The notes under the pieces were generated by a model that did not search any database, had not been told where the DNA came from, and was given only the letters and a program-made list of their open reading frames with translations. Below are positions 5,990 through 6,904 of a DNA stretch of 24,666 nt, in pieces (position 1 is the first letter of the stretch; every line of letters begins with the position of its first letter). The position numbers and the translations under genes are program-made. This stretch comes from a virus: IMG/VR virus record IMGVR_UViG_3300025141_016572. One strand, given 5' to 3'.

Positions 5990-6904
5990 ATGAAAGTCTA
6001 CCTGGATGATGAAAGACAAACGCCTCCTGGGTTTACTCGCGTCTACTGGCCAGAAGAGGCAATTGACTTACTCAAAACAGGACAAGTCGACGAGATCAGT
6101 CTGGATCATGACCTTGGCGATGACGAACACGGTACAGGCTATGATGTCGTTAAGTGGATTGAAGAAGAGGTTTTTCTGAATGGTTTTGTGCCGCCAGAAA
6201 TGAACGTGCACTCAGCCAATAGTTCAGCGGCTGCAAAAATGTGGGCAGGCATTGAGAGTATCGAAAGATTTCATGAAAGGAACTTGAGAAAACATGAGGG
6301 AATACAACTTCTCCGTGAGCTGATTTCTGAAATTGCTGTAGGGATTCACGGTGCGGGTATGACATCAGATGAGCTTTTTGATCGTCTTGGGTATGGGTCC
6401 ATCCACCTCGAAAAGGGCGGAGAAGTAACAGAGCACGAAGCAGATCAAGTTGCAAGACAGATTGCCCGAATCAAGCCTGAACGTATTTTCGCATACTCAC
6501 GAGGGGCCGCAGCTTTGAATGCTGCGCTATACGATCCTGACATGTCTAATCCTCCACCACCAATCACATATCTGGCACCGGCAATGTTTCGTGGGTGGAG
6601 TCGAATGCGTCCCAAAAAGGTTCCACCCGGCAGCATGGTTCTTCATGGGGCAAAGGATAAGGTTGTGTCAGTAAGAGAAGCTGCTCAAATTGCAATTGCG
6701 ATTGGAGCGCCATTATATCTCAGTTTGGACTACAGCCACAAAAGTATCATGTACTCCAAAGGTGATCCGAGCAAGTTCACCCAGGTCGATCCATACGAGA
6801 TCGCCAAGAGCAAAGACTTCCCACAGTGGGGGCGAGGTAATGCGACACAAAAGCTTTTGTCACAACAAATAATCGCCGTACAAAATCTTCTTGGCCGCGT
6901 GTAA
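5990..6904 (+). CDS. Two-domain protein. The N-terminal domain is a receiver-like fold of the phage cyclic-phosphate-processing receiver (cREC) type. The C-terminal domain is alpha/beta-hydrolase-like with an A-Y-S-R-G nucleophile-elbow candidate.
   Basis: N-terminus MKVYLDDERQTPPGFTRVYWPEEAIDLLKTGQVDEISLDHDLGDDEHGTGYDVVKWIEEEV...VHSANSSAAAKM matches the phage cREC pattern (MKIxLDDER...W.....EA..LL.....ISLDHDLG....GYD...W.......P...VHSAN). C-terminus has IFAYSRGAA and later HGAKDKVVSV, typical of small esterase/hydrolase folds. Start at ATG 5990 rather than track 5933. Confidence 0.55.
   Translation: MKVYLDDERQTPPGFTRVYWPEEAIDLLKTGQVDEISLDHDLGDDEHGTGYDVVKWIEEEVFLNGFVPPEMNVHSANSSAAAKMWAGIESIERFHERNLRKHEGIQLLRELISEIAVGIHGAGMTSDELFDRLGYGSIHLEKGGEVTEHEADQVARQIARIKPERIFAYSRGAAALNAALYDPDMSNPPPPITYLAPAMFRGWSRMRPKKVPPGSMVLHGAKDKVVSVREAAQIAIAIGAPLYLSLDYSHKSIMYSKGDPSKFTQVDPYEIAKSKDFPQWGRGNATQKLLSQQIIAVQNLLGRV

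Follow-up and report, generated by a model that had tools for sequence, protein, structure and literature searches.

What does a phage gene encode that runs without interruption from a receiver-like domain into a hydrolase, how did its two halves come to be joined, and do they serve one task? These questions are raised by positions 5990-6904 of a viral DNA stretch of 24,666 nucleotides (IMG/VR virus record IMGVR_UViG_3300025141_016572), referred to below as the window. A first-pass annotation, made from the letters and their open reading frames (ORFs), had described the gene as a fusion of a cyclic-phosphate-processing receiver-like (cREC) domain to an alpha/beta-hydrolase-like domain. The domain identities of both halves are now practically certain: the N-terminal half is a cREC domain and the C-terminal half is, on the evidence of its predicted structure, a lid-less Ser-Asp-His alpha/beta hydrolase. 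To judge from sequence searches, this hydrolase represents a family without a model in Pfam, NCBIfam, PHROG or PADLOC, of which the window protein is the first recognised member. The fusion is very probably the product of a recent in-frame deletion at an AGAAAA microhomology in a single lineage. The gene is laid out as follows.

5990..6904, + strand: whole fused gene, ATG start, TAA stop at 6902-6904, 304 amino acids
5990..6274, + strand: cREC (cyclic-phosphate-processing receiver-like) domain, residues 1-95 (Pfam PF20274, phrog_1479)
6293..6334, + strand: linker helix HEGIQLLRELISEI, residues 102-115, a copy of the LRxxIRxxLxE motif (model helix 2-15)
6335..6901, + strand: minimal lid-less alpha/beta-hydrolase domain, residues 116-304

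The fused frame is a real circulating allele, since the same 304-residue protein, identical at every residue, was recovered on at least nine contigs from at least five samples and three assembly pipelines (among them ENA ERZ27249063, JGI 3300025112 and 3300002514, and Logan SRR6222012 and SRR5251701). An assembly or sequencing artefact is ruled out by this recurrence across independent samples and assemblers. The motifs on which the first-pass annotation had been built are all present in the translation: MKVYLDDER at residues 1-9, ISLDHDLG at 36-43, GYD at 50-52, VHSAN at 73-77, AYSRG at 168-172 and HGAKD at 219-223. The ATG at 5990 is the start common to all homologues (N-terminus MKVYLDDER), and use of the alternative TTG at 5933 would create an overlap with the upstream ORF, which is syntenic in all relatives of the lineage:

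5725..5985, + strand: upstream hydrophobic ORF of 86 amino acids

Its stop precedes the ATG of the fused gene by 4 nt and no Shine-Dalgarno sequence was found before ATG 5990, so that the fused gene is likely to be translationally coupled to the upstream ORF; several neighbouring genes have AGGAG.

The N-terminal half was assigned by family models. Pfam PF20274 (cREC_REC) matched residues 1-87 with 96.9 bits (E=1.1e-27; gathering cut-off 27), phrog_1479 of PHROGs matched residues 1-109 (E=1.6e-24), and Response_reg (PF00072) gave no match to the window protein in Pfam even at E<=10, which identifies the N-terminus as cREC and not as a canonical CheY receiver. The cREC domain was defined as a divergent receiver domain by Iyer et al. 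(2021; PMC7824862), who reported that it is never accompanied by histidine kinases and is linked to NAD+/ADP-ribose and RNA-repair genes, and who predicted that it opens 2',3'-cyclic phosphate RNA ends or ADP-ribose cyclic phosphates. No histidine-kinase-type kinase was present among the scanned ORFs of the window. Conservation within the family was assessed from the aligned domains of the 83 closest homologues in a collection of 5.8 billion proteins, and the following positions stand out.

6005..6010, + strand: Asp6-Asp7, acidic pair ending the first strand, 99% conserved
6098..6118, + strand: core motif S37-L-D39-H40-D41-L-G43, 99-100% conserved
6209..6220, + strand: H74-S-A-N77 motif, H74 99% and N77 96% conserved

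The diagnostic motifs (DD, S-L-D-H-D-L-G, G-T-G-Y and H-x-A-N), 90-100% conserved among these sequences, all occur in the window protein; in another cREC alignment, A4, they are invariant or nearly so, Asp6-Asp7 being invariant. The full conserved set comprises L5, D6, D7, R9, P12, G14, W20-P21, S37-L-D39-H40-D41-L-G43-D-D, G48-T-G-Y51, W56, E58, P68-P69, H74, A76-N77 and M84. The window protein carries the consensus residue at every conserved position except F15, where the family has Trp, and by the criteria of the family the domain is therefore intact. The describers of the family equate Asp39 with the phospho-accepting Asp in classical receivers (PMC7824862). Independent support for a receiver-like fold was not obtained. 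A single-sequence AlphaFold2 (AF2) model of the region gave a beta-alpha pattern at pLDDT 45-72, a profile of 20 cREC sequences matched no chain in the PDB at E<=10, and hhalign of the cREC profile against CheY returned a probability of 0.06 and no detectable similarity.

The C-terminal half proved harder to place, as its 200 residues gave no significant match in Pfam, PHROGs, NCBIfam or PADLOC, and the family was recognised through profiles and a structural model instead. A hydrolase profile of three sequences found nothing meaningful in the PDB; one built from 39 sequences succeeded. The underlying alignment, A3, consists of the window domain and 38 diverse trimmed members that are 22-80% identical to the window sequence. 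Its sole invariant columns are S170, R171, G172, D223 and H250 (S70, R71, G72, D123 and H150 in the numbering of the modelled fragment, which is also used for the model strands and helices below), and G121, A168, A174, P197-A198, R201, W203, V226, G239, P278, W280 and Q293 are near-invariant. AF2 modelling of the domain with A3 gave pLDDT 95.7 and pTM 0.91, and placed the predicted catalytic residues as follows.

6347..6352, + strand: His120-Gly121, HG oxyanion-hole motif after the first core strand (model strand 16-19); the Gly near-invariant
6497..6505, + strand: Ser170-Arg171-Gly172, nucleophile elbow (A-Y-S-R-G), invariant in 39, between model strand 65-69 and helix 71-79
6656..6658, + strand: Asp223, predicted catalytic acid, invariant, after model strand 116-120, aligned with the acid of solved hydrolases
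6737..6739, + strand: His250, predicted catalytic base, invariant, after model strand 142-145, aligned with the His of solved hydrolases

The oxyanion-hole His120, in the context G-I-H120-G121, is present in all but three of the 39 aligned sequences. When the model was compared with known structures by Foldseek, the top matches were LipA proteins described as 'minimal alpha/beta hydrolase' (E=4.6e-4, TM 0.52-0.62). In agreement with this, the A3 profile matched PDB sequences 9w30_A (E=2.5e-6), with the triad residues aligned, and 3bdi_A (E=5.6e-5), with HG, Ser, APA, Asp and His all aligned; a fold search of viral models in BFVD returned nothing at E<=1e-3. Weak Pfam matches were seen to Abhydrolase_6 in 10 of the 39 members (best E=9e-7) and to Ser_hydrolase (PF06821) in 21 (best E=6.5e-4, under the 22-bit cut-off). 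Membership of PF06821 was rejected, as the window domain gave no match and no member reaches the gathering score, and that family is regarded as a structural neighbour. The serine of AYSRG and the aspartate of HGAKD, which had been singled out from the sequence, are thus predicted to form the triad with His250, each residue being invariant and following a strand of the model. What we found in the two halves was neither a canonical CheY receiver, nor an N-terminal domain foreign to the receiver-like families, nor a C-terminal half without a hydrolase fold, any of which would have spoken against the fusion as first described.

How the two domains came together is recorded in close relatives. The closest relative of the hydrolase half is P0002 (210 amino acids, 81% identity), and P0003, a cREC protein of 194 amino acids, is 95% identical to the window over the domain. 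On contigs L001-L006 these two are separate adjacent genes, P0003 followed by P0002, with a spacer of 18 bp (six of six contigs), and the surroundings are common to the window and all six: a vault-protein-like gene on the opposite strand, the 86-residue ORF, an ORF of 55 residues and ORFs of ~120 and ~73 residues. Global alignment showed that L001 2994-3314 is missing from the window, a difference of 321 bp or 107 codons, in frame, with the junction at 6292/6293.

6287..6292, + strand: deletion junction AGAAAA (Arg100-Lys101); an identical hexamer ends both flanks in L001

The deleted segment comprised the 93-residue tail of the cREC protein (a small module starting MKITKRKLRKLIRE), the entire 18-bp spacer and six codons from the start of the hydrolase gene, whose former N-terminus is now the linker helix. 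The tail module was not found elsewhere in the window. Distant cREC relatives (P0004-P0006) retain such a tail, indicating that the split state is ancestral. Between fused and split alleles, pN/pS was 0.031/0.664 in the cREC part and 0.109/0.70 in the hydrolase part (dS saturated), indicating strong purifying selection on both halves. The locus is a clean example of the creation of a two-domain protein in a phage in one step, by a 321-bp microhomology deletion. One of the split contigs carries a mosaic allele (L006 2-1141): over residues 33-100 its cREC part has the sequence of the window unchanged (100% identity), and it keeps the split arrangement and a P0002-type hydrolase (81% identity), which points to recombination between the fused and split lineages.

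The hydrolase family is larger than simple searches suggest. A word-indexed search with the C-terminal half found two relatives only. When 1.84 billion cluster representatives were searched exhaustively with a HMMER profile, 53 matches to the family were obtained, of which P0086 (3328 amino acids, 42 stretches) and P0133 were discarded as repeat artefacts. A profile search of the word-indexed collection yielded 146 clusters, ~95 of them at E<1e-30, all metagenomic. Against 50,697 GenBank phage records, tblastn with the window protein returned cREC matches only and none to the hydrolase, and tblastn with P0104, a distant member of the hydrolase family, returned nothing. A pattern scan for the hydrolase found none in 185,579 species genomes, and one IMG/VR locus and ten metagenome loci in other collections. 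This family, seen in uncultivated viral-type contigs only, enlarges the phage accessory repertoire, and its invariant Ser-Arg-Gly elbow, which is unusual, points to an anionic substrate.

Both halves occur with other partners. Members of the hydrolase family are fused to SET (P0091), to the catalytic core of topoisomerase IB (P0118, P0125), to HNH (P0123) and, in P0111, to an RNA-repair 'Swiss-army-knife' HAD phosphatase, and on L013 the hydrolase lies inside a multi-module protein of 915 amino acids. A further partner is related to a gene close to the fusion in the window:

7724..8479, + strand: neighbouring gene of 251 amino acids starting with the helix motif; a homologue is fused to the hydrolase C-terminus in another clade

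By BLASTP this ORF is 40% identical to P0087 (E=2e-45), and the alignment begins exactly at the helix motif. In the next clade (L019-L022 and P0087, 51% identity; hydrolase at L019 5986-7272) its homologue forms a C-terminal fusion with the hydrolase, while in the window the two are separate and ~800 bp apart; L019-L022 thus represent a second, independent fusion of neighbouring genes, joined at the helix motif. On the cREC side, no alpha/beta-hydrolase partner was found among the 85 closest cREC proteins. In four clusters of the closest cREC relatives (P0042, P0048, P0049 and P0050) an N-terminal cREC domain is joined to a YbaK/tRNA_edit aminoacyl-tRNA deacylase, each of the two being matched at E<1e-26; this architecture is recurrent and apparently undescribed. 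The YbaK family hydrolyses the aminoacyl ester on the 3'-terminal ribose of tRNA, and the fusion ties cREC to the tRNA 3' end. Further partners of cREC are NUDIX, His_Phos_1, Metallophos, HD, MOSC and a UDG-like domain.

The helix at the junction belongs to a motif that is not confined to the fused gene. It has the form h-R/K-x-h-h-R-x-h-h-x-E, with an N-terminal consensus of about MKITKxQLRxLIRE (~14 residues, Glu near position 14), and no description of the MKITKxQLRxLIRE motif was found in the literature. In the window it begins ORFs 9004-9300, 7724-8479 and 10324-10605 and an 18-codon ORF at 9302-9358. Runs of unrelated small genes begin with it in related loci: at least nine within 7 kb of L019 (700-7730), several on L013 (2615-10594) and, on L016 (8001-11719), the hydrolase gene and the next four genes. 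It also stands at every module junction of the multi-module proteins of this phage group. The four genes after the hydrolase gene on L016 are tandem paralogues of ~240 amino acids right after the hydrolase gene (L016 8718-11719), each started by the motif (MKTLRQYIRQIILES and similar) and adjoining deoxyhypusine-synthase-like and dGTP diphosphohydrolase-like genes. A strict regular expression found 33 copies in 51 hydrolase-family proteins, against 0.87 in shuffles (38-fold), and the copies cluster at the N-terminus, ~205 residues further on, and at C-termini.

Two further places in the window bear on the motif. The 18-codon ORF 9302-9358 (MKITKRQLKQIIREVTSS) ends at a TAG (9356-9358) and is followed in the same frame by an ORF of 165 amino acids (9359-9856); together they look like a motif-tagged gene split by a nonsense codon, which may represent a pseudogene, read-through or reinitiation. 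General recoding of TAG was rejected as an explanation of the in-frame TAG at 9356, as TAG ends 10 of 31 ORFs in the window. Upstream of the fused gene, the 19 in-frame codons 5' of ATG 5990 (from TTG 5933 on) read MKSPKRSASLLNLKQIIRS, which is similar to the helix motif, and they overlap, in a different frame, the end of ORF 5725-5985; the counterpart of 5933-5989 in L001 reads ...SPKKSAYLLILTEIVRS and lacks the TTG. The segment may be the remnant of a former tagged N-terminus, or due to chance.

The helix motif might serve as a signal for capsid targeting or cleavage, as a docking helix or as a recombination joint. In phage T4, a targeting peptide of 10 residues is common to the N-termini of internal proteins that are unrelated in sequence; it is cleaved after the Glu of an (L/I)-x-E site, and the prohead proteases of giant phages likewise cut after Glu (PMC9026906). 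By analogy with an expanded T4 capsid-targeting sequence (CTS), one helix might address a shuffling arsenal of small enzymes in uncultivated marine or aquatic relatives of huge phages, an idea that we consider unlikely. The helix would then direct modules to the capsid interior or to a shared hub and show a protease where to cut, and separate genes, two-module fusions and multi-module proteins of 900 amino acids would all give rise to the same injected set of enzymes, with the hydrolase a frequent cargo. If the analogy is true, the cREC-hydrolase protein is a two-cargo precursor, and a helix that acts as a packaging or processing signal would be both a tool for, and a view into, protein delivery by giant phages. 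Helix-motif tagging may be a more interesting lead than the fusion.

As to function, we tentatively favour, at a little short of an even chance, a single polypeptide with two independent hydrolytic active sites that clear groups from a terminal ribose. Both halves are probably active. In line with the prediction of its describers, the cREC half would open a cyclic phosphodiester, which could be that of a 2',3'-cyclic phosphate RNA end or that of ADP-ribose 1'',2''-cyclic phosphate. Ser-Asp-His alpha/beta hydrolases act via acyl-enzymes on carboxyl esters, thioesters or amides; the hydrolase half would cleave such a bond via a Ser170 acyl-enzyme, and Arg171 and the near-invariant Arg201/Trp203 would hold a substrate that is negatively charged and probably bears a nucleotide. 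That the substrate is anionic, and possibly a macromolecule, is suggested by the invariant Arg171, by Arg201/Trp203 on the short loop that replaces the lid, and by the open site. The protein would then most likely free the 2'/3' hydroxyls of a terminal ribose from a cyclic phosphate and from an ester (aminoacyl, acyl or acetyl), the targets being damaged or modified tRNA/RNA or ADP-ribose-derived molecules in phage-host conflict. The assignment of ribose ends as the substrate is rather doubtful in itself; the recurrent cREC-YbaK fusions and the fusion of P0111 to an RNA-end phosphatase suggest it by analogy, and our low estimate reflects the fact that the pairing is not conserved.

Several observations weigh against such a joint task. 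The cREC-hydrolase pairing is that of one lineage: PF20274 is carried by the window protein only among 120 hydrolase-family clusters listed, and in L007, L013-L017 and L019-L027 the 6-8 kb around the hydrolase are free of cREC by tblastn. A fusion that is recent and a pairing that is unseen elsewhere are weak evidence for a shared pathway or a common substrate, and the heterogeneous partners of the hydrolase imply that fusions may just string unrelated effectors together. In the 24.7-kb window there are no genes for RNA ligase, polynucleotide kinase, sirtuin, KptA, Macro or NUDIX proteins. In addition, cREC was described as experimentally uncharacterised in a 2022 survey by the same group (PMC9503650), and an AlphaFold model of the full-length 304-residue protein computed without an alignment reached pLDDT 39.6, too low to be of use.

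The main alternative, a somewhat unlikely one, is an incidental fusion, in which unrelated accessory effectors were joined by a neutral deletion and the hydrolase acts outside RNA and nucleotides, with a substrate such as a lipid, a cell-wall sugar bearing O-acetyl groups, or an ester or amide in a host protein. The junction helix would then perhaps be a T4-like packaging or cleavage signal, and the halves would come apart again or enter the host together. Such a history is consistent with the restriction of the pairing to one lineage, with the joining of the hydrolase elsewhere to an ORF 7724-like protein, SET, topoisomerase IB, HNH, HAD and long multi-module proteins, and with the presence of LRxxIRxxLxE directly before and after the hydrolase domain and on the N-termini of many neighbouring genes; the cleaved targeting peptide shared by the N-termini of T4 internal proteins provides a precedent for the packaging signal (PMC9026906). 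It accounts less well for a gene adjacency that is kept across alleles ~20% different in the hydrolase, for the strong purifying selection on both halves in the fused allele, and for the repeated cREC-YbaK fusions, where the presence of another ribose-ester hydrolase makes an esterase partner less arbitrary. As for packaging, neither a virion protein nor a prohead protease of the T4 type (gp21-like) was identified in the window, the only protease being ClpP-like. Cleavage of the helix by the hydrolase half itself, as an S9/S33-like peptidase that trims or cleaves the motif helix of tagged proteins, is highly improbable: the motif stands on both sides of the domain in many members, weak Pfam matches include Hydrolase_4 (8 of 39) and Peptidase_S9 (2 of 39), and the lid-less domain leaves the active site open to macromolecules, but peptidase models are matched no better than esterase models, and most motif-bearing genes lie in loci or proteins without a hydrolase domain, which is thus not an obligate partner of the motif.

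The first-pass annotation had also considered a nucleotide second messenger as the substrate, and an anti-defence enzyme that destroys a host immune nucleotide with contributions from both halves is improbable. Candidates would be cyclic ADP-ribose (cADPr) isomers, 2',3'-cyclic-phosphate-terminated oligoadenylates or the cyclic oligonucleotides of CBASS and type III CRISPR systems. We know of no Ser-Asp-His alpha/beta hydrolase that cleaves the phosphodiesters or glycosidic links of immune messengers; given the chemistry of the superfamily, the hydrolase half is unlikely to degrade cyclic-oligonucleotide messengers, and of the earlier suggestion there is left whatever role of this kind may fall to the cREC half. 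The gene does sit in a phage accessory region, and the describers of cREC propose processing of cADPr or cyclic-phosphate nucleotides and note fusions to NUDIX (PMC7824862, PMC9503650). Against this, acyl-enzyme chemistry leaves the hydrolase half without an obvious part, no PADLOC model matched, and the hydrolase family is unmatched in GenBank phage records, including those of phages with known anti-defence genes. The chance that a phosphorylation switch gates the C-terminal hydrolase, as in a CheB-like regulated esterase, is close to nil. The architectural likeness is superficial, Response_reg and CheB_methylest were both unmatched even at E<=10, the cREC profile has no detectable similarity to CheY or to any PDB chain, and no evolved allosteric coupling is expected of domains that were separate proteins until a recent deletion. 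The missing Pfam matches, the recent fusion and the lack of similarity to CheY effectively refute this form of regulation, and the domain never occurs with histidine kinases (PMC7824862), of which the window has none of the type.

The genes around the fusion suggest its setting. The window looks like part of a larger phage genome, from an uncultivated marine relative of 'huge' phages. The vault-protein-like gene (2937-5609, - strand, 890 amino acids) encodes MVP shoulder and repeat domains with a Band-7/SPFH signal (MVP_shoulder E=9e-22), and its only relatives in phage databases are in the uncultured huge phages LR756500-LR756503 (462-735 kb; 36-39% identity), with a cREC ~11 kb from the vault-protein-like gene in LR756500. 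A vault-like shell protein is unusual in a phage. Positions 13433-17907 hold a complete DUF444 (YeaH)-SpoVR (YcgB)-PrkA (YeaG) trio with very strong Pfam matches, and relatives of its PrkA at ~32% identity occur in Thermus phage phiYS40, Ralstonia phage RsoM2USA and uncultured huge phages. A fusion of a PIN nuclease to a PhoH-like ATPase (435 amino acids) lies at 20724-22031. The ClpP-like serine protease, the sole protease seen in the window (11070-11744), has an N-terminal extension of ~90 residues and overlaps the preceding 142-residue ORF (10693-11121) by 52 nt. Other genes encode a KaiC/RecA-like ATPase, a DinG-like helicase and a tail-fibre-like fragment.

What is new in this protein is the cREC domain architecture and the unmodelled hydrolase family; known are both folds and the theme of cREC plus another hydrolase. 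That theme is represented by phage cREC fusions such as the cREC-NUDIX protein of Serratia phage BF (PMC7824862, PMC9503650), with which the window protein shares the cREC family and its identical conserved residues, a second small hydrolytic domain, the status of an accessory gene and a jumbo- or huge-phage setting. It differs in that its partner is a Ser-Asp-His alpha/beta hydrolase and not a phosphoesterase or pyrophosphatase, and in the lack of nearby NAD+/ADP-ribose or RNA-ligase genes. The uncharacterised cREC-YbaK proteins (P0042, P0048-P0050) likewise have an N-terminal cREC domain followed by a carboxyl-ester hydrolase; the esterase half of the window protein differs from theirs in fold and mechanism, and the YbaK fusion recurs in several clusters, whereas the window fusion is a single allele. 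The hydrolase half resembles the PF06821 Ser_hydrolase proteins (B. subtilis YdeN, human RBBP9) and minimal hydrolases of the Bacillus LipA type at an identity of just 14-17%, and is set apart from them by the invariant Arg after Ser, APAxxRxW, LPDWG and the N-terminal amphipathic helix.

CheB consists of a receiver, a linker and a Ser-His-Asp methylesterase, the order in which receiver-like domain, linker and Ser/His/Asp esterase follow each other in the window protein. The domains of the latter lie outside the CheB families, however, with no two-component context, and their fusion is recent and unregulated. Variable combinations of two or more effector domains on a phage polypeptide are also seen in polyvalent proteins (Iyer et al., 2017; PMC5512222), and their repertoire of partners (HNH, ParB-like, GNAT-like, peptidase-like, topoisomerase) overlaps in spirit with that seen here, although an alpha/beta-hydrolase domain is not mentioned in that paper. 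Their hallmarks MuF, zincin-like MPTase and ArdC-N, as well as a portal, were not found by Pfam and PHROGs in the ORFs of the window, which represents 24.7 kb of a probably much larger genome, and the modules here are small, often separate genes and delimited by helices. The linker motif resembles the T4 CTS in being a short N-terminal peptide that is shared by unrelated small proteins and ends in (I/L)-x-E; it differs in its length of ~14 residues instead of 10, in its dissimilarity to MKTYQEFIAE and in its additional occurrence at internal and C-terminal positions. The cREC domain is widespread among phages; up to 18% of jumbo phages are reported to carry it. Its natural fusion to a compact, confidently folding serine hydrolase, accompanied by natural split alleles, provides a convenient construct for biochemistry.

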